A stretch of 64,000 bases of DNA from an uncultured bacterium (GCA_903885965.1 CAISKQ010000060.1:21220-85219); one strand, 5' to 3'. Counted from the stretch's first letter, positions 3,630 to 52,490 are shown. Translations and numbers: made by a program. Notes: generated by a model from the sequence alone, not told the origin.

Positions 3630-4988
3630 CTACTTTCTCCATATATGTTCTAACTTTATAATTCCATATTGATTTTTTTCATTCGATATTATTTTAAAAA
3701 CATATTCTCTATTTTTATAATCAAAATGAGTTGTTTCTTTATATTTTTCGTAAAGCGAAACCGATAGTTGATAAGATCCGCTGAATAATTTAATACTCAG
3801 CATCACAAAATCAACAAATCCATCTCCGTAAATATTGTTAATATCATATCTGGATGTTTCAGTGTTTGGCCCTGAAATATGAATGCCGTCTTGAGTATGA
3901 ATTGCGACACCAAAAACAGGGTTTTCTATTTTCTTTTTTGCATTGTAATGTATCCTCGCCACAATATCATCTCCTGACTCAAAAACATTTTTTTCTTTTC
4001 CATCTTTATCCAAAAATTCCACTTTTGTGATTTCTGCAATTTTATTTTTTCTTTCCTCCTCCTGTGTTGCTTTTTCTTCTTCAATTCTTCTTTTTTCCTC
4101 CTCCAAGTCCTTTCCTTTCAATTTTTTCATTTCTTTTTGAACTCGCATATCTTCTTGTTTCTGCTCCTTTTCTATTCTCCTTTCTTCATCTGACATGTTC
4201 TGATAAATATATTCGTTTCCGACTTCCTCAGGATCGCCAATTTTCACAATTTTGCCACTTCGAAGCAACATCGCCCGGTCGCAATAGCGCTGCACCACAG
4301 CGATGTCATGTGTGACAATAACAACAGTTCGCCCCATCTCCCGATATTTATTAAACTCCTCCAAACATTTTGATTGAAAATTTGAGTCACCCACTGCCAA
4401 GACTTCATCCATCAGCAAAATTTCGCGATTAGCGTGAATAGAAACCGAAAATGCAAGACGCACTTGCATTCCAGAGGAATAATTCTTGAGTTTTTGATCA
4501 ATAAATCTTTCCAATTCTGAAAAAGCCACAATAGCATCAAATTTTTTGTCGATTTCTTTTTTGGTCAGGCCCAGAACCGTGGCGTTGAGATACACATTGT
4601 CTCGACCAGAAAGTTCAGGATTAAAACCAATTCCCAATTCTAAAAATGGAGAAATTCGCCCTTTGATTTCAATCTTCTTCTCGGCTTTCCGAAGGTTCAA
4701 CCTTCGGTGTTCCGAAGGTTCAACCTTCGGATGCGCATCAGCGTCTGGTTGATAAATCCCAGCCAAAATTTTCAGTAATGTCGATTTGCCGCTTCCATTT
4801 CGCCCAATGATCCCAAAAAATTCCCCTTTTTTCACCTCAAAAGAAACGTCGTCAAGGGCTTTGAATTCTTCGAAGCCTCCACTTTTAAAAACACTCGTAA
4901 CCGCTCCTCTGAGAGAGGAGATTTTTTCATGCGGAATCCTAAATGTTTTTGAAACATTCTTTACGCTAATTGCAATATTATCTTCCAT
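3630..4988 (-). CDS. Polysaccharide/teichoic-acid export ABC transporter ATP-binding protein (Wzt/TagH-like) with a coiled-coil linker and a C-terminal Wzt_C-like carbohydrate-binding domain.
   Basis: Walker [10 protein letters not shown], signature [11 protein letters not shown], Walker [14 protein letters not shown]-loop VVIVTHD. 452 aa against about 250 aa for a bare ATPase. K/E-rich linker then a beta-rich tail. Confidence 0.8.
   Translation of the reverse strand: MEDNIAISVKNVSKTFRIPHEKISSLRGAVTSVFKSGGFEEFKALDDVSFEVKKGEFFGIIGRNGSGKSTLLKILAGIYQPDADAHPKVEPSEHRRLNLRKAEKKIEIKGRISPFLELGIGFNPELSGRDNVYLNATVLGLTKKEIDKKFDAIVAFSELERFIDQKLKNYSSGMQVRLAFSVSIHANREILLMDEVLAVGDSNFQSKCLEEFNKYREMGRTVVIVTHDIAVVQRYCDRAMLLRSGKIVKIGDPEEVGNEYIYQNMSDEERRIEKEQKQEDMRVQKEMKKLKGKDLEEEKRRIEEEKATQEEERKNKIAEITKVEFLDKDGKEKNVFESGDDIVARIHYNAKKKIENPVFGVAIHTQDGIHISGPNTETSRYDINNIYGDGFVDFVMLSIKLFSGSYQLSVSLYEKYKETTHFDYKNREYVFKIISNEKNQYGIIKLEHIWRK
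4688..4729. repeat. Two tandem copies of a 19-bp palindrome CCGAAGGTTCAACCTTCGG, separated by TGTT, embedded in frame in the Wzt ATPase CDS.
   Basis: Direct reading. Encodes an extra segment (...[24 protein letters not shown]...) between Walker A and the Q-loop region. A single copy occurs in the decayed paralog at 6603..6621. Confidence 0.85.
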
Positions 4989-5051
4989 CCTTCTTTATAT
5001 TTTATATAGTATCTTATATGGAATTAACTTGATCCATATTAGTTTACCTCC

Positions 5052-5083
5052 GAGCTAAGCTCCTGAGTACAGGAGCTTAGCTC
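5052..5083. repeat. Perfect 14-bp-stem hairpin GAGCTAAGCTCCTG-AGTA-CAGGAGCTTAGCTC upstream of the wzt start.
   Basis: Direct reading. No flanking T-run, so it is not a canonical terminator. Confidence 0.7.
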
Positions 5084-5152
5084 CATCCCAATATACTACT
5101 AATTTAGTTAAGTTGGTATCTTATATGGTACTTCACATCTATCCTCATCCAT

Positions 5153-5190
5153 CATTCCAAAACTCGACGACCGCATAGTTTTGGTATCAT
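5153..5190 (+). promoter_or_regulatory. Copy 1 of a 40-bp palindromic element (CCAAAAC-N14-GTTTTGG followed by TATCAT).
   Basis: Sequence tccaaaactcgacgaccgcatagttttggtatcat. Family of 4 copies. Confidence 0.5.
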
Positions 5191-5420
5191 TGATTTTTTA
5201 CGCAAAATAGCAACCCGCTATAACAAACTTCTGTTTTTTTCTCCCCTTTTCCCGCATAAATAAGAACAAGTCAACCCCATTAGGAATTCTTTTTATAAAT
5301 CAATACTATCATTATACCACCAAAAATGCAACGCGCATTTAACCCAAAATCAAGTTGAATAGCCCCTCCTTTGGTTATTACATGCGAGCGGCAATAATAC
5401 TAAATTTTTACCCCAATTTT

Positions 5421-5462
5421 ATTATTCCAAAACACGACGACCGCATAGTTTTGGCATAATGG
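5421..5462 (+). promoter_or_regulatory. Copy 2 of the palindromic element with a -10-like CATAAT.
   Basis: attattccaaaacacgacgaccgcatagttttggcataatgg. Confidence 0.5.
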
Positions 5463-5523
5463 AAAATATCGGTAAATTCACATAGCTTATCCACATCAGA
5501 TGTTTAGATTAAGCTTAATATCT

Positions 5524-5566
5524 GATTATTCCAAAACACGACGACCGCATATTTTTGGTATAATGG
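5524..5566 (+). promoter_or_regulatory. Copy 3 of the palindromic element with an extended -10-like TGGTATAAT.
   Basis: gattattccaaaacacgacgaccgcatatttttggtataatgg. Confidence 0.5.
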
Positions 5567-5609
5567 GGTATCTTACCCCACTTAAAACAACGCTCCTAAC
5601 GTCAAAGGC

Positions 5610-6164
5610 TTAATACAATTTGAATTTTAGTTTGAGCTCTTCCCCATTAGAGATGTTTACAACCTCGCCATAGCGAACAAGATTTCGAAGTTGAAAATAT
5701 TCCGTGATGAAATTAATTTCATCCAAACAAGGAAAAGGATGGATAAAAACAGATTTTTGAATTTCTTTAAAGCCAAGCTCTTTCAGTTTTTCCCGAAGAA
5801 CATTCCGCTCCGATCTTCTTTTCTCAGGAATATCAAACATCACAAGCCGCCATCGATTATCCCATTTCAAGGGTTTAGGAATCTTAATAGCATCTATTTT
5901 AAATTCAAGTGTTTTTAGCTTTCCTTTTTCCGTTAGCACAATTTTAGTAGTTCCATTTTCTTGTTCAAGATAATCCACCAAGCGTTCTTGCTTAAATTCT
6001 TTTACAGCCCGGTATAGATATTGCTTATTTATCTCGTGCCAATCGCGCTTGAGCGTTTTGAAAACATTCTTTTGCGACCTTGGATTATTTGCAAGTCCAA
6101 GAGCCACTCCTCCTGCAAGAAGAAGTAGTATCTTTCTTTTAATTGGGCTCCTTATTTCTTTCAC
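5610..6164 (-). CDS. PaaX-like transcriptional regulator (N-terminal winged-helix-like region plus a PaaX_C-like domain).
   Basis: DNRWRLVMFDIPEKRRSERNVLREKLKELGFKEIQKSVFIHP matches the PaaX C-terminal domain pattern (W..V.FDIPE..R..R..LR..L..LGF..LQ.SV%). Confidence 0.5.
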   Translation of the reverse strand: MKEIRSPIKRKILLLLAGGVALGLANNPRSQKNVFKTLKRDWHEINKQYLYRAVKEFKQERLVDYLEQENGTTKIVLTEKGKLKTLEFKIDAIKIPKPLKWDNRWRLVMFDIPEKRRSERNVLREKLKELGFKEIQKSVFIHPFPCLDEINFITEYFQLRNLVRYGEVVNISNGEELKLKFKLY

Positions 6165-6216
6165 CTTATTTACAATGAATTTATTTTTGTCTTTTTATTA
6201 TTCTTATTGAAATCCT

Positions 6217-6258
6217 CATTATACCAAAACAAGACGACCGCATAGTTTTGGTATAATG
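6217..6258. promoter_or_regulatory. Copy 4 of the palindromic element, here with TATAAT on both strands. It sits about 50 nt upstream of the PaaX-like gene start.
   Basis: cattataccaaaacaagacgaccgcatagttttggtataatg. On the minus strand TGGTATAAT precedes the ATG at 6164 by about 45 nt. Confidence 0.55.
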
Positions 6259-6296
6259 CTTGCTAAATATTTTCTGCAATCTTTGCTTTGAAAATT

Positions 6297-6882
6297 ACTA
6301 TCTCCCACTGCCAAAACCTCATCCATGAGCAGAATCTCGCGGTTGGCGTGAATCGAAACCGAAAACGCGAGACGAACTTGCATGCCGGAAGAATAATTCT
6401 TGAGTTTTTAATCAATGAACCTTTCTAATTCTGAAAAAGCCACAATGGAATCAAACTTTTCATCAATCTCTTTTTTCGTCAGCCCCAAAACCGTCGCATT
6501 AAGATAGACATTATCGCGCCCAGAAAGTTCCGGATTAAAACCAATCCCCAATTCCAAAAACGGGGAAATTCGCCCGTTGATCTCAATCTTTTTCTCGGCT
6601 TTCCGAAGGTTCAACCTTCGGGGATACGTCTTCGTCAGCCTGATAAATCCCCGCCAAAATTTTCAGCAAAGTGCTTTTTCCGCTTCCATTTCTCCCAATG
6701 ATCCCAAAAAATTCTCCTTTTTTCACCTCAAAAGAAACGTCATCAAGAGCTTTAAATTCTTCGTAACCTTTGTTTCGCTTGAACACGCTCACTGCTGCAC
6801 CGCGAAGAGAACTCACCTTTTCGTGAGGAATGCGGAAAGTCTTGGAGACGTGAGAGACTTTAATTGCGATATTATCTTCCAT
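6297..6882 (-). pseudogene. Decayed duplicate of the 5' about 600 bp of the wzt/tagH ATPase gene, frameshifted at the palindrome.
   Basis: ORF 6583..6882 ([22 protein letters not shown]...[19 protein letters not shown]) and ORF 6408..6614 in another frame (RISPFLELGIGFNPELSGRDNVYLNATVLG) are colinear with wzt residues 1-200. Nucleotide identity to 4380..4988 is visible. Homology stops near 6297. Confidence 0.75.
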
Positions 6883-6944
6883 CTATTTATTTTTCAATAT
6901 TTTTCCAGCATATTATACTGATTCATCACTGTTTTTTCATATAG

Positions 6945-8171
6945 CTACAATGACCAAGGATACAGATATTCCTTATTGAGAATATCACCCTCTAATGATA
7001 CTAGGTTATATTTTTTTATATTATACTTTTCTTGAAAATATCTCACTGCCGAAGGATTAAATTTATTAAAGTTAATCTTTGCCTCAATTGGCAAAAATGA
7101 ATTATTTTTTCGCAAAATAAAATCTATCTCTTTCTTATCTTTTGTTCTCCAATAAAGCACATTATCTTTACCATATTTTTTTACCAATTCTGAAAAAATT
7201 CCAGTTTCAAAAACATTTCCAATGATTTCTTTTTGCAAATTCTTGAGCCACAACATCTGCATAAGACCAGTATCATAAAAAAGTATTTTTGGAGTCTTAA
7301 ACAATTCAGATCTGATATTTCCACTATATGGATGCACGAGTTTTATTATATAGGTATTTTCCATAATAAAAAGGTATCTCTCAACTGTTGGCTTGGCTAT
7401 CTTGCATGTGTTTGACAATTCAGTGACATTTAAAAGATTGCCACTCTGTGAGGCCAAAACCTCCAACAATTTGTTAAATTTGTCTATATCCTTTATTTCA
7501 GCAAGATCCCTTATATCCTTACGCACATAGGTATCAATAATTTGTTGTAAATATTTTTCCTTTTTTTCTCTTTCCCTTGTCAAGACAATTTTTGGATATC
7601 CACCAAAAAGAATGTATTCCTTGAAAAGTTTTTTCAACTCATCTATTTTCTTTTGAGTAAAAACTTTTCCTTTTTCAAAAGGATACCCCTTAAATAATAG
7701 GAATTCAGTAAAGGATAAGCTAAAAATTTCAAAATTAACAGTTCTTCCAACCAATGAATCGCTAAATTTATTTTTTATTTCGAAACTAGAAGACCCTGAA
7801 ACCACAAGCTTTATATTCTTATGATGATCTGAAATTAATTTTAAAAAAGACGATGGATGTTGCAGATATTGAATTTCATCAATAAAAACATACAATTTTT
7901 TATTGCTAGTGGCACTCTTCTTTGCCTTATTTAATAATCCCTCTTCAGCAAGAAGGTCAATAAAGCTTTCAACTCCGGAATCAATAATAGCCACATATCT
8001 AGAATCTTCAAGGTCTATATAGAAAACTTGCTTTTTCTCTCTTTCTAGCATCTCTTTGAAATAATATAGTATGTGCGTCTTACCCACCTGTCTTGCCCCA
8101 TGCAAAACCACAATATCATCAGTATTGAGATATTTGCTTATTTCTGACGTTATTTCCCTCTTATAAAGCAT
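6945..8171 (-). CDS. AAA+ ATPase of the COG1373/DUF4143 family.
   Basis: Walker A HGARQVGKTHIL, Walker B LYVFIDEIQYL, and the C-terminal domain typical of DUF4143 ATPases. Paralog at 36748..37917. Confidence 0.75.
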   Translation of the reverse strand: MLYKREITSEISKYLNTDDIVVLHGARQVGKTHILYYFKEMLEREKKQVFYIDLEDSRYVAIIDSGVESFIDLLAEEGLLNKAKKSATSNKKLYVFIDEIQYLQHPSSFLKLISDHHKNIKLVVSGSSSFEIKNKFSDSLVGRTVNFEIFSLSFTEFLLFKGYPFEKGKVFTQKKIDELKKLFKEYILFGGYPKIVLTREREKKEKYLQQIIDTYVRKDIRDLAEIKDIDKFNKLLEVLASQSGNLLNVTELSNTCKIAKPTVERYLFIMENTYIIKLVHPYSGNIRSELFKTPKILFYDTGLMQMLWLKNLQKEIIGNVFETGIFSELVKKYGKDNVLYWRTKDKKEIDFILRKNNSFLPIEAKINFNKFNPSAVRYFQEKYNIKKYNLVSLEGDILNKEYLYPWSL

Positions 8172-24065: not shown

Positions 24066-24156
24066 GTGTCATACTGAACTTGTTTCAGTATCTACTCACT
24101 TTATTTCAGTCAGTTTGGTGCGTTAGAGATCCTGAAACAAGTTCAGGATGACATTT
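24066..24156. repeat. Paired palindromic hairpins (REP/BIME-like family), locus A.
   Basis: gtcATACTGAActtgtTTCAGTATc and gATCCTGAAacaagTTCAGGATgac, 45 bp apart. Confidence 0.7.
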
Positions 24157-37917: not shown

Positions 37918-38006
37918 ATAAATATATTACTTTTTAATCATCTGATGTAACAAAAGATATATCTAATTATACACACACCACTTTTTTTGTCAAGCCATTA
38001 TGTCAA

Positions 38007-38036
38007 ATCTTAGCTAATTTGAGCCCTTTTGGCAAG
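38007..38036. repeat. Direct repeat copy 2 of the porB 3' end sequence.
   Basis: tcttagctaatttgagcccttttggcaagcat. Confidence 0.85.
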
Positions 38037-38147
38037 CATTAGAATTGTATAATGTATTTTGTATGATGTATAAAGTAGCTATGCGCTTCCCACGTCTATA
38101 CATCATACTTTCTACATAATGAAAAACTAACTTGTTTTTTCATCACA

Positions 38148-39635: not shown

Positions 39636-39657
39636 ATGCAGTATGAAATTATTTATT

Positions 39658-40566
39658 TTAGCTAATTTGAGCCCTTTTGGCAAGCTTTTCGAAATTTTCA
39701 TTAACCGTCTTTTGAATTTCTTTAATCACCTCAAGATTTTTTTCTTTAAAGAGATGTTTAAAGCGTCCTTGGGTTTTCAGGAATTCTTCAATCGGCTTTG
39801 GCTCCTTCACAATATTATTGATGATATATTTTCCATCTTCTATTTCAAAAAGCGGCCAAAAATTAGTTTCAGTGGCAAGTTTTCCAATTGCAACATACTC
39901 CGAAGTTGGAAATTTCCAAATTTGCGTGCAAGGTTGCAAAACCAACAAAAAGGATGGACCTGGAGTGTTTAAAGCTTTTTGAGCTTTGCGTTTCAGGTCT
40001 GGCAGATAAGCAACATTAGCTTGGGCCAAATATTTGATCCCATGGGCTTTGACAATTTCCATCAAATCTTTGCGTTGCTGAGTTTTGCCAAATGACTGAC
40101 TGCCAACTGGAGCCGTTTCAGTGTTGGCGCCATATGGGGTTGCGCCACTACGCTGTCCTCCAGTGTTCATGTAGCCTTCATTGTCATAGCAAACATACAA
40201 AAAATCATGTCCGCGTTCGAGAGCACCAGAAAGCGCTTGCAGGCCAATGTCATAAGTTCCACCGTCGCCACCAAAAGCGATTATCTTGGCAGGATTTTTT
40301 AACTTTCCGGATTTTTCCAAAGCTTTTTGCGCCGCATCAATCCCGGCCGCGGTGGCTGCCGCATTGCCAAAAACACTGTGAATATATGGCACTTTCCAAG
40401 AAGTTGATGGATAAATCGTTGTTGTCACTTCAAGACAACCAGTTGCGTTTGAAACAATCACTTGCTCATCGGTTGCCCCCAGCACAGTCCGCACAATCGC
40501 CGGAATTCCACAACCCGCGCAAGTAGCATGACCAGAAGAGAATTTTTTGGTAAGATCTTTATTCAT
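39658..40566 (-). CDS. porB: Pyruvate/2-oxoacid:ferredoxin oxidoreductase beta subunit (TPP-binding).
   Basis: GHATCAGCGIPAI (Cys ligand region), GGDGGTYDIGLQALSGA (TPP-binding GDG). Confidence 0.85.
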   Translation of the reverse strand: MNKDLTKKFSSGHATCAGCGIPAIVRTVLGATDEQVIVSNATGCLEVTTTIYPSTSWKVPYIHSVFGNAAATAAGIDAAQKALEKSGKLKNPAKIIAFGGDGGTYDIGLQALSGALERGHDFLYVCYDNEGYMNTGGQRSGATPYGANTETAPVGSQSFGKTQQRKDLMEIVKAHGIKYLAQANVAYLPDLKRKAQKALNTPGPSFLLVLQPCTQIWKFPTSEYVAIGKLATETNFWPLFEIEDGKYIINNIVKEPKPIEEFLKTQGRFKHLFKEKNLEVIKEIQKTVNENFEKLAKRAQIS

Positions 40567-40626
40567 ATATAATACGGATTAGAACGAATTAATTACGGAT
40601 CGTCACAGATCACAAATTCACACAGA

Positions 40627-41055
40627 TTATAGATTTAATTTTAGTTTAGATATGAATGGTTTTCTATCATTTGTGCAAATAGATCTTTTTATTTCTAATT
40701 CTTGAGTACAAAAATTAACCAAATAACCAATTTCATATTTACTAGCTTTTAAATAAGATCTTTGCTGATTAATATCATCGACTCTCGTGAAGCTAGTCGC
40801 TTTAATTTCTACTATTATTTTATCTTCCACCAAAATATCTGGGACATATGTGCCTAATTTTTTTCCTGTTTCCAATGAATAAATATCGATTCTTTTTTGA
40901 CTTTCAAATTTTAAATTCTCTTTTTCCAATTCTTCTTCTAGGGCTTTTTGATAAATAATTTCTTTTAATCCCTTTCCGTATTTATTTGCAACATTATAAA
41001 AACATCCTCGCACTTTGTATGATAATTCTTTTTCCAATAGACCATCCTCGCTCAT
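40627..41055 (-). CDS. GxxExxY protein (TIGR04256 family, PD-(D/E)xK-like) inserted inside the por operon.
   Basis: GKGLKEIIYQKALEEELE (GxxExxY), then D...EIK (VEDKIIVEIKA). Confidence 0.7.
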   Translation of the reverse strand: MSEDGLLEKELSYKVRGCFYNVANKYGKGLKEIIYQKALEEELEKENLKFESQKRIDIYSLETGKKLGTYVPDILVEDKIIVEIKATSFTRVDDINQQRSYLKASKYEIGYLVNFCTQELEIKRSICTNDRKPFISKLKLNL

Positions 41056-41109
41056 AAAATATGAATCCGTGATTCGTGAACATTCGTCACAAATTCGTGA
41101 AGATCCGTT

Positions 41110-42279
41110 TTACACTAGGTATTTAACCTTATTATCAATCTCCCCATCTTCTAAATCCTTGAATACTTTTTCAATGTCCTTTTGCATCGTGTCGCGACCG
41201 CCGAGACCGTAAACATAACTGGCAAGGTCTGGCTTGCGACTTGAGCTGTGATAAAGGCTGCTCACAATATCTTGATAGAGCGGAGGATATGCCCCGAAGG
41301 AAATTGCGCGATCCAAAACAGCAATTTTTGGAATGTGGGACAAAACTGCACCAATTTCTGCGTATGGAAAAGGCCTAAACATCTTCACGCTAAGCAGGCC
41401 GACTTTTTTCCCACTCATGCGAAGTGCATCGACAACATCCTTGGCTGTCCCACCAGTGGCACCCATGATCACAATCACGCTCGTCGCATCTTGCAAATGA
41501 TATTGCTCGAACATTTCATATTTTCTGCCTGAAATTTTGAAAAATTCTCCGCAAATTTTTTTGTAAGCAAGCTTAGCTTTTTGCATCACTTTTTCTTGAT
41601 CAAGCTTGAATTCAAAAAAAGTGTTTTGCAGCGCCAGGGTTCCAAAAGTTGTCGGATTCTCAAAATCAGTCAGCGATTGCTGCACTTTCCTCTCGCCCAC
41701 AAACTCTTTCACAACTTGATCATCCAAAATTTCAATTCTTTCGGTAGTGTGGGAAGTGTGAAAGCCATCCATGATTGGCATCACAGGAGCGCCAATTTCC
41801 TCAGCAAGCTTAATCGCAATAATTGTGTCATCATAAGCGTCCTGCACCTGCTCGGCAAAAATCTGCACCCAACCCAAATCTCGCACCGCCATCACGTCGC
41901 CATGTTCGCCGTGGATGTTCAGCGGTGCGCTGAGCGCTCGAGAGCTGACGCTCATCACGATTGGCAAGCCCAGCCCGCTGACCACCGGCAATGTTTCAGC
42001 CATGTATAAGATTCCTTGTGAACTTGAAGCGGTTACGGCCCGCGCTCCTGCAGCAGACGCGCCAATTGTTGCGCTCATTGCACTATGCTCAGATTCCACC
42101 TGCACAATCTCAGCCTCAACCAGACCGTCAGCTTTCATTTTCGCATAAGTTTCAATAATAGTGGTTTGGGGAGTGATTGGATAAACCGCCATCACATCCG
42201 GTCGAATTTGCCTCCAGGCTTCAGCAACCGCATAGCCGCCAGTCAATGCTTTAATATTTTTGTTTTTCTTATTAGACAT
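41110..42279 (-). CDS. porA: Pyruvate:ferredoxin oxidoreductase alpha subunit.
   Basis: LTGGYAVAEAWRQIRPDVMAVYPITPQT; about 390 aa, typical PorA. Confidence 0.85.
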   Translation of the reverse strand: MSNKKNKNIKALTGGYAVAEAWRQIRPDVMAVYPITPQTTIIETYAKMKADGLVEAEIVQVESEHSAMSATIGASAAGARAVTASSSQGILYMAETLPVVSGLGLPIVMSVSSRALSAPLNIHGEHGDVMAVRDLGWVQIFAEQVQDAYDDTIIAIKLAEEIGAPVMPIMDGFHTSHTTERIEILDDQVVKEFVGERKVQQSLTDFENPTTFGTLALQNTFFEFKLDQEKVMQKAKLAYKKICGEFFKISGRKYEMFEQYHLQDATSVIVIMGATGGTAKDVVDALRMSGKKVGLLSVKMFRPFPYAEIGAVLSHIPKIAVLDRAISFGAYPPLYQDIVSSLYHSSSRKPDLASYVYGLGGRDTMQKDIEKVFKDLEDGEIDNKVKYLV

Positions 42280-42283
42280 AATA

Positions 42284-42613
42284 TTATTTTTTCATAATTA
42301 TCGCTTTCACTGGACAGACTTGTGCGCAAACTCCGCAACCCTTGCAATATTCATAATCAATCACTGCTAAGTCTTTTTCTTTTGCAAATTTGCCACTAAT
42401 TTCAACTTCTGCCTCACTACGCTTTCGCATTTCCATAACAGCCTCAGGACAATGTGGCACACAAGTGCTGCATCCGATGCACTTTGAAGCATCTACTTCG
42501 GGCTTCATATAGCGCCAATCTCCTGTTTTTGGCGCCTTAGTTTGGTCATGATTTATAATTGCTCCTTTTTCCATATTGGTACTAATTTTCACGAATTTAT
42601 GACTGATTTTCAC
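42284..42613 (-). CDS. porD: Pyruvate:ferredoxin oxidoreductase delta subunit (2x[4Fe-4S] ferredoxin).
   Basis: CIGCSTCVPHCP and CKGCGVCAQVCP. Confidence 0.8.
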   Translation of the reverse strand: MKISHKFVKISTNMEKGAIINHDQTKAPKTGDWRYMKPEVDASKCIGCSTCVPHCPEAVMEMRKRSEAEVEISGKFAKEKDLAVIDYEYCKGCGVCAQVCPVKAIIMKK

Positions 42614-42675
42614 GGAGCACGGATATCCGTGATATGTGTCAATCCGTAATCAATCCGTTTCTATCCGTTAAGTTT

Positions 42676-47591: not shown

Positions 47592-47764
47592 AACCCCATG
47601 AAACCTACAACTTGCGCAGTTTTTTGATTTATTGTCTAATAAATTTACCCCTTTCCCCTAATTCTACCAATAAGAAAAACCTACGAATCCACAAATCAGC
47701 TACAAATCTACAAATAGAAAAAATTACATTTATAACAATATAACCATATAACAATTTTGTATTT

Positions 47765-52377: not shown

Positions 52378-52490
52378 AAACTTTTGTCATACTGAACCTG
52401 CCTGCCCGCCTTTGGAGGGTTTCAGCATCTACTTCCTTTGCATAAGATAACTTCCTGCATGCAAGATCCTGAACTAAATTCAGGATGACA
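52378..52490. repeat. Paired palindromic hairpins (REP/BIME-like), locus C. The first hairpin carries a GC-rich 20-nt loop insert.
   Basis: gtcATACTGAAcctgcctgcccgcctttggagggTTTCAGCATc and gATCCTGAActaaaTTCAGGATgac. Confidence 0.65.

Follow-up and report, generated by a model that had tools for sequence, protein, structure and literature searches.

A GxxExxY gene between inverted word arrays in the por operon of a Candidatus Moranbacteria genome, apparently exchanged between species as one cassette

In a 64,000-nt stretch of a contig (GCA_903885965.1, CAISKQ010000060.1:21220-85219; hereafter the window) from a lake metagenome recovery, assigned to Candidatus Moranbacteria of the candidate phyla radiation (CPR, Patescibacteria), the por operon contains between porA and porB a 544-nt segment (40567-41110), in which a gene of the GxxExxY / PDDEXK_3 nuclease family (gxx) occupies the symmetry centre of a palindromic array of short words. 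Comparison with related genomes shows recent and repeated exchange of this cassette between species, the gene and both arms moving as one unit. From its anatomy and distribution we infer, with a confidence only somewhat above even, that the cassette is a selfish element similar to the intervening sequences (IVS) of 23S rRNA: the nuclease would provoke breaks at or near the arrays, repair would spread the gene together with its arms, and gene-less arrays found elsewhere in the window would be derivatives of the unit.

An initial annotation, made from the window sequence without database searches, had placed a 142-aa GxxExxY gene inside the por operon, and it proved to be a real open reading frame (ORF) which exceeds the curated hidden Markov model cut-offs of both PF13366 PDDEXK_3 (E 3.9e-29, 101.8 bits, cut-off 22) and TIGR04256 GxxExxY (E 1.1e-30, 106.4 bits, cut-off 35). 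The motif, the catalytic residues and the restriction-endonuclease-like fold agree with this assignment. The four residues of the PD-(D/E)xK site (E32, D73, E83 and K85) are intact in the window gene and invariant across its homologues, and a C-terminal RSIxTNDRKPF tail is conserved. A fold search with the protein returned generic PD-(D/E)xK relatives only, and no solved homologue was found by sequence. In the literature the function of the family is given as ‘Unknown’, with a remark on ‘multiple transfers’ (PMC3424549). The PADLOC defence models gave just a weak Cas4-like fold match (E 0.0055) and no proper one, so a known anti-phage defence system was rejected as the identity of gxx. One marginal match, annotated ‘endonuclease’, was obtained with PHROGs, and a phage vector for the cassette was rejected as no relatives were present among viral contigs. 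There is no second copy of gxx within the window.

The upstream arm begins directly after the porA stop codon and stops 8 nt short of the gxx ATG, while the downstream arm ends 5 nt before the porB ATG (Table 1). Both spacers consist almost wholly of ACGGAT/ACGAAT-type words, sense upstream and antisense downstream on the gxx strand, so each arm of about 50 nt has its ACRRAT words pointing inward, most commonly spaced by 10 nt. Aligned in inverted orientation without gaps, the two arms are identical at 36 of 51 positions (score 42, whereas 2,000 shuffles gave 29 at most). As a direct repeat, the flanks share only the 10-mer TCACAAATTC (P about 0.03). The initial annotation had described shared flank repeats, and these are real: ATYCGTSA occurs 18 times in the window versus 6.65 expected, none of 100 shuffles reaches this number, and 9 of the 18 copies lie in the three spacers it had named. 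It had quoted a direct repeat, but the significant relation between the flanks is the inverted one, and CGTCACA...AATTC was rejected as an end marker, being a by-product of word composition. A census of the repeats, which had been suggested as a check, also confined ACRRAT clusters to five places in the window (34180-34277, 40574-40627, 41065-41108, 42625-42668 and 47683-47715), the last of them a one-sided array. No target-site duplication is visible at the cassette boundaries, because the whole spacer differs from the spacer of gene-less relatives.

For comparison, 32 por loci were fetched from species-representative genomes, and the porA-porB junction could be read in 28 of them. gxx is present at this junction in two representatives (L006 and L007; loci are given by L numbers) and missing from the other 26, among them the close relatives L035 (porA 90% identical at the amino acid level) and L008 (85%), which answers the presence/absence check proposed along with the initial annotation: the gene is not universal at the site. 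Other collections supplied three further filled sites (L038, L118 and L119). Where the cassette is present, the DNA of the gene and arms is 96–99% identical, as compared to about 78–89% in the flanking por genes. A sliding identity profile rises from ~0.8 to 0.97–1.0 over the upstream arm, gxx and the inner part of the downstream arm, and within this tract the upstream arm is 87–100% identical between species. In being sporadic at one conserved site and far less diverged than its flanks, the cassette behaves as a free-standing homing endonuclease gene does.

Synonymous positions tell the same story. Between the window and L006, 141 of 143 gxx codons are identical and third-position identity reaches 0.986, compared to 0.55–0.75 in porG, porD, porA and porB; the respective values are 0.888 versus 0.49–0.60 for L007 and 0.958 versus 0.52–0.63 for L118. 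L118 is also incongruent, its por genes being nearest to those of L007 (porA 95.5% at the nucleotide level) and its gxx nearest to that of L006 (98.4%). In the distant L119, PorA and PorB are 55% and 66% identical to the window proteins, and gxx at the same site, with ACGGAT arms, is 81% identical. High identity at synonymous sites combined with incongruence means that vertical descent with loss cannot explain the pattern. Of the codons that differ between the window and L007 copies of gxx, 17 are synonymous and 1 is non-synonymous, which shows purifying selection on the gene.

Unrelated ORFs were seen in the same porA-porB spacer of three other relatives (L020 7318-8592, L023 7277-8977 and L027 7174-8070), coding for charged, low-complexity products of 424, 566 and 298 aa, respectively. 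The spacer can therefore be regarded as a general insertion hot spot.

The two gene-less repeat sites reported in the initial annotation, between porD and porG and next to the ZIP transporter gene, were both found, but the second one (34180-34289) is downstream of ZIP rather than upstream: both neighbouring genes are on the minus strand, so the cluster follows the ZIP stop codon and precedes prfB. As porD starts at the ATG listed in Table 1, the first array fills the whole porG-porD spacer, its arms meeting at the perfect palindrome CACGGAT/ATCCGTG. Cassette arms and those of the ZIP site align in register, with 38 of 47 identical positions upstream and 36 of 44 downstream, well above nulls; by these alignments, both cassette arms have true homologues in the gene-less clusters. 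The porG-porD array is 98–99% identical between the window and L007/L028, whereas the adjoining 300 nt of coding sequence are 76–78% identical, so gene-less arrays alone show a cassette-like signature of exchange or homogenisation. Such solo sites may be empty targets, deletion derivatives or independent elements.

The ZIP-prfB spacer is empty in many species. It holds a gene-less array in the window and in L035, where the array is conserved, and the orthologous position in L026, L039 and L040 is filled by a 77–78%-identical gxx with homologous arms (43 of 52 positions are identical between the downstream arms of the por site and of L026). Flanks of the filled L026 site and of the unfilled L015 site are 85–96% identical. 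In L012 the same spacer contains a gxx of 32% identity between inverted arrays of another vocabulary (GACTCTAAT / ATTAGAGTC), and in L023 a gene-less array in the vocabulary of L012. Patchy presence, near-identity of the cassette, homologous solo arms and filled ZIP-prfB sites elsewhere all speak for what the initial annotation had suggested, a small selfish gene of nuclease fold that has terminal repeats of its own, plus solo repeat sites.

The prfB gene next to this spacer has a classical CTT TGA C programmed +1 frameshift site (34102-34108, minus strand, CTTTGAC). Translation really begins with the ATG at about 34175, so the mechanical ORF call (34074) covers the post-frameshift part. The site is kept in most of the compared relatives, with variants in a few.

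Units of the form arm-gene-arm and arm-arm would also be the expected anatomy of an autonomous/non-autonomous transposon pair following the logic of MITEs (miniature transposable elements with inverted repeats) or of REPIN/RAYT systems, in which the GxxExxY protein would act in a transposase-like manner, bind the phased words of both arms, pair the arms, excise or insert the unit and mobilise the arm-arm units in trans. The word phasing of ~10 nt, typical of multi-site transposon ends, fits such a pair, as do the gene-less copies beside the single gxx copy in 64 kb, their being closer between species than their own flanks, and the different vocabularies held by the same spacers in different species. 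We still consider a transposon pair rather unlikely. Near-identical copies occur at the same site only, no target-site duplication can be defined, and a bare PD-(D/E)xK core of 142 aa has no known precedent as a sole transposase. To our knowledge, PD-(D/E)xK nucleases of this sort hydrolyse DNA without strand transfer.

Operators or RNA-processing sites are another conceivable role for the arrays. Redox control of the por operon would be plausible, given what is known of Rex regulons, and the arrays lie in transcribed operon spacers and fold into hairpins. They could thus be an ordinary host feature (Rex/CRP-like operators or RNase III hairpins) regulating por, gxx being inherited vertically and mostly lost. 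The initial annotation had noted a resemblance of the repeats to the Rex box, and this did not hold: TTGTGAA-N4-TTCACAA with up to 3 mismatches gave 7 matches in the window, fewer than the 10.8 expected, and none in the array spacers. A Rex/CRP-type operator was rejected for the lack of a consensus match and for the presence of arrays in unrelated spacers, including that between ZIP and prfB, genes that have nothing to do with redox metabolism. Orthologous spacers in other genomes carry unrelated vocabularies or nothing. An Rfam scan of the window returned two tRNAs only, with no RNA family on the arrays and no rRNA. Vertical inheritance is incompatible with gxx synonymous-site identity far above that of the flanks, and we find the whole explanation highly improbable.

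Arms of the same kind accompany GxxExxY genes in other genomes. Eighty metagenomic gxx homologues were retrieved and the word AC-N-[AGT]-AT was counted around 23 stand-alone genes. Upstream of these genes, 80 words are sense and 12 antisense; downstream, 10 are sense and 81 antisense. The mean number of inward words per gene is 7.0, versus 0.66 for 64 control ORFs from the same loci (Mann-Whitney p about 1e-9). The dominant word shifts by lineage (CACGGAT, ACAGAT, CACGAAT, CACTAAT), the word type staying constant. Start-to-start spacing has a sharp peak at 10 nt (46 of 111 intervals, with 80 of 111 falling within 9–12 nt), so the words would fall on one face of the DNA helix. As far as word counts can tell, these data show that the clade of GxxExxY genes to which the window copy belongs generally carries such arms. 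Outside CPR, too, this type of word seems to go with the family: on a Fusobacteria plasmid (L122, CP102406.1, 1190-1990) a 39%-identical GxxExxY gene lies amid ATCCGTG, ATCAGTG and CACAGAT words in a different arrangement. Near this plasmid gene there are three direct copies of a ~45-nt unit with ATCAGTG and ATCCGTG, and CACAGAT is located farther upstream. A 408-kb contig (L121) carries two gxx genes in differing contexts.

In other CPR contigs (L065, L068/L069, L074, L075, L078 and L080) a GxxExxY domain is found in frame within RecG, between helicase motifs II (DEQHRFG) and III (SMTATPIPRT), together with inverted ACGCAGA / TCTGCGT arrays. In L079 the domain and inverted arrays are located inside the GTPase domain of LepA. 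The arms of these insertions are translated into T/Q/N/D-rich and S/A/R/E-rich linkers. The RecG-borne domains are 60–70% identical to each other, close to the identity of their RecG flanks; having diverged like the flanks, the insertions are old, and recent mobility was rejected for them.

The architecture is not restricted to nuclease genes. A window gene at 14092-14445 belongs to PF05635 23S_rRNA_IVP (S23p, a four-helix bundle; E 3.9e-35) and is framed by inverted arrays of its own words, with a gene-less counterpart of these arrays 2.4 kb away (Table 1). In 11 relatives a gene of ~124 aa (truncated in 2) is located between porD and porA and flanked by inverted GTAT-type arrays; where a match is on record, it is to PF05635 23S_rRNA_IVP / bAvd. 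A strong GTAT/ATAC word palindrome (RNA fold z = -4.9) is also present in the window at 38039-38130, and it resembles the arms of these porD-porA genes, which makes it a probable gene-less copy of their type. GC-rich CCTCTCC...GGAGAGG hairpins were noted in L119 (5001-5600), in the porG-porD spacer of L035 and in the ZIP-prfB spacer of L037; a gene for DUF559, a Vsr-like PD-(D/E)xK protein, has them on both sides, and spacers of other genomes contain similar hairpins with no gene. With DUF559 there may be a third gene family that has a repeat of its own.

S23p proteins are the products of the 23S rRNA intervening sequences known from Coxiella burnetii, Leptospira and others, and these are the closest described counterparts of the cassette (PMC4990558). 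The Coxiella IVS is a selfish, horizontally acquired element of 428 nt, whose terminal inverted repeats form a stem with the S23p ORF in the loop; tandem GACAGAT heptamers lie just 5′ of the start codon, and the element is excised by RNase III (PMC4990558). Both kinds of unit are 0.4–0.55 kb long, have terminal inverted repeats round a small ORF and word repeats upstream of its start, are sporadically and horizontally distributed and are carried in a host RNA; in the cassette, too, the repeats enclosing the ORF pair in the predicted transcript fold, and the S23p gene of the window has the architecture of the cassette. The cassette differs from an IVS in lying in the porA-porB spacer of a protein-coding operon rather than in an rRNA helix, and in coding for a PF13366 nuclease rather than a four-helix bundle. 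Its arms are phased arrays with ~70% complementarity instead of a near-perfect 28-bp stem, its ORF is under purifying selection, in contrast to the decaying one of Coxiella, and gene-less copies of the cassette exist.

The S23p cassettes bear on an alternative which we think improbable, namely that palindromic arrays are a general spacer feature of Moranbacteria, independently exchanged or host-maintained, in the centres of which GxxExxY, S23p and DUF559 genes merely ride, serving some function other than mobility (addiction, defence or nucleic-acid processing). Nearly all spacers of at least ~60 nt in the por operons of relatives bear an inverted word array, mostly without a gene; S23p genes share the architecture without a nuclease fold; gene-less arrays show the near-identity signature by themselves and coexist with the gene. 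Moreover, the heptamers preceding the Coxiella S23p ORF contain the same ACAGAT word (PMC4990558), so these words are not tied strictly to a single gene family. What speaks against riding is the specific link of gxx to words of the CAC-R-R-AT type and not to the AT-rich arrays which dominate the same spacers, a link extended by the like words beside the 39%-identical plasmid homologue. Invariant catalytic residues, purifying selection and the absence of a match to a known defence system count against it as well.

At the RNA level, no promoter-like or terminator-like sites were found within the cassette arms. Promoters were predicted from sequence upstream of porG and after porB. The cassette is therefore read through within the por operon transcript. 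When the whole cassette is folded as RNA, the arms pair with each other over the ORF in the minimum free energy structure and in the centroid alike, and the gene-less arrays form interrupted hairpins (z = -2.2 for the porG-porD array, z = -2.7 for the ZIP-prfB one). Covariation between arms could be followed in four distinct sequences only, which contain one compensatory pair and slips of register as the words repeat. The arms are just about 70% complementary, G-to-A variation occurs on both, and it is the word and the 10-nt phasing that are conserved, not the pairing. These properties favour recognition at the level of DNA over a purely RNA-level constraint.

We return to the selfish, IVS-like cassette and to how it could spread. 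The nuclease would probably bind the phased words cooperatively and break the DNA at or beside the arrays. Recombinational repair from a filled copy, in a gene conversion akin to homing that uses DNA acquired from relatives by uptake, could then carry gxx and its arms into the corresponding spacer of another genome, and loss of gxx would leave a gene-less array. The por transcript would carry the cassette, and the arms can pair as a long interrupted stem round the ORF, as in IVS, which probably keeps the insertion harmless.

Several observations weigh against this scheme. No cleavage or binding activity is known for GxxExxY proteins, a family listed as ‘Unknown’ (PMC3424549). The same architecture is seen in S23p cassettes, whose protein lacks a nuclease fold, so the unit may be moved by something other than its nuclease. 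Gene-less arrays are conserved and persist beside gxx in one genome, which argues against arrays being simple targets of a classical homing endonuclease. At the porA-porB site no ‘empty ACGGAT target’ was seen, because the gene-less close relatives L035 and L008 carry unrelated AT-rich word arrays in this spacer. Cassette copies of 98–100% identity are all located at one site, so transposition between sites can be deduced just from older homology. Finally, all compared sequences are metagenome assemblies.

Free-standing homing endonuclease genes are known from intronless homing in phages, and I-Ssp6803I is a homing enzyme of the PD-(D/E)xK type. The cassette resembles such genes as a small nuclease gene between conserved host genes, sporadic at a fixed site and far closer between hosts than its flanks, with a high-identity tract that ends near the element. 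Homing endonuclease genes are not known to be flanked by inverted arrays or accompanied by gene-less derivatives, and here putative targets coexist with the gene in one genome.

Two classes of repeat-based elements are comparable as well. REPIN/RAYT systems, built of repetitive extragenic palindromic (REP) sequences and their associated transposase, also have a single gene between inverted short repeats, gene-less intergenic doublets and lineage-specific vocabularies (PMC3116915, PMC3337134). The enzyme of the cassette is a PD-(D/E)xK protein and not a Y1 (HUH) transposase, its repeats are arrays of 6–7-nt words phased at ~10 nt and not single REP hairpins, and the gene itself is exchanged between species. 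MITEs, including the Rickettsia palindromic elements, are short palindromic gene-less elements which fill intergenic spacers (PMC10969869; PMC1779305). Terminal inverted repeats and short gene-less copies are common to both, and so are in-frame copies in coding genes, represented here by a glycosyltransferase of the window (16110-16198) and by RecG and LepA of other CPR genomes. The cassette has no DDE transposase parent, shows no target-site duplication and has arms of phased words. In sum, by the defining tests it does not qualify as a terminal inverted repeat/DDE transposon or RAYT system, nor as a Rex operator or known defence system.

In the glycosyltransferase (GT1, ORF 15560-16798) the array is in frame and lies within the inter-domain linker. 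GTCATC words are followed by AAGCTAAA words, and the array translates as a low-complexity stretch.

A literature search on GxxExxY, PF13366 and CPR intergenic palindromes found, within the library covered, no paper on flanking arrays or mobility. PF13366/TIGR04256 is a large family across prokaryotes, and the proposed scheme, if true, would give it a first testable role as a nuclease tied to phased word arrays. It would also explain a part of the repeat-filled spacers in the streamlined CPR genomes, though not the other word vocabularies, extend the puzzle of rRNA intervening sequences to protein-coding operons and a second gene family, and provide direct evidence that CPR species have recently exchanged DNA. 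It would likewise indicate one origin for domain insertions into the essential proteins RecG and LepA. A compact nuclease which may read repeated short words could be of interest for enzyme developers.

We can further speculate, quite tentatively and with more doubt than belief, that GxxExxY proteins, S23p/IVS proteins and possibly DUF559 belong to an unrecognised class of mobile elements, ‘word-array cassettes’, of which the 23S rRNA IVS would be the special case noticed first. In such a class a small protein would recognise helically phased words of 6–7 nt inverted round its own gene and drive copying or exchange of this unit as well as its gene-less derivatives. Such elements would colonise operon spacers throughout CPR and enter genes such as recG and lepA in frame.

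Table 1. Positions of the cassette, its neighbours and comparable arrays in the window
Feature	Position	Strand	Basis or remark
porG	43248-42676	minus	gene order of por operon
gene-less array filling the porG-porD spacer	42575-42675	minus	both arms, abutting
porD	42574-42284	minus	96 aa, start at ATG 42574
porA, host gene upstream of cassette	41110-42279	minus	POR_N and PFOR_II matches
upstream arm	41056-41109	minus	ACGGAT/ACGAAT words ~10 nt apart
gxx, GxxExxY / PDDEXK_3 nuclease gene, 142 aa	40627-41055	minus	ORF and family matches
downstream arm	40567-40626	minus	inverted complement of upstream arm, ATCYGT/ATTCGT words
porB, host gene downstream of cassette	39658-40566	minus	TPP_enzyme_C match
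gene-less array filling the spacer from ZIP stop codon to prfB start codon	34176-34290	minus	both arms, in register
gene-less counterpart of the S23p arrays	16865-16937		inverted GTCATC/GATGAC array
parallel cassette with S23p gene	14068-14476	minus	inverted GTCATC / GATGAC word arrays around gene

Other repeats were noted in the window. A 39-nt repeat that reads on the minus strand like a sigma-70 promoter (TTGCCA-17 nt-TAAAAT) is present in three copies (36695-36733, 38006-38044 and 39654-39692); one of them lies directly after porB and has 97% conservation in L035. A ~90-nt compound palindromic element (TGTCATCCTGAAC...GTTCAGGATGACA) occurs four times (24067-24153, 29684-29777, 32944-33024 and 52385-52490), and the ZIP-prfB spacer of L025 holds a member of the same family. 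Four copies of a 47-nt repeat (5146-5192, 5416-5462, 5520-5566 and 6213-6259) have an internal CCAAAAC...GTTTTGG palindrome followed by TATAAT, which looks like a repeated operator-promoter unit. In the same region, two stretches of 300 and 175 nt are repeated ~1.9 kb apart with 84–85% identity (4374-4878 and 6288-6769), which suggests a partial gene duplication.

In L121, a protein of 1272 aa (4009-7827) has a weak match to PF05635 and may represent an in-frame insertion of an S23p domain, analogous to the RecG case.

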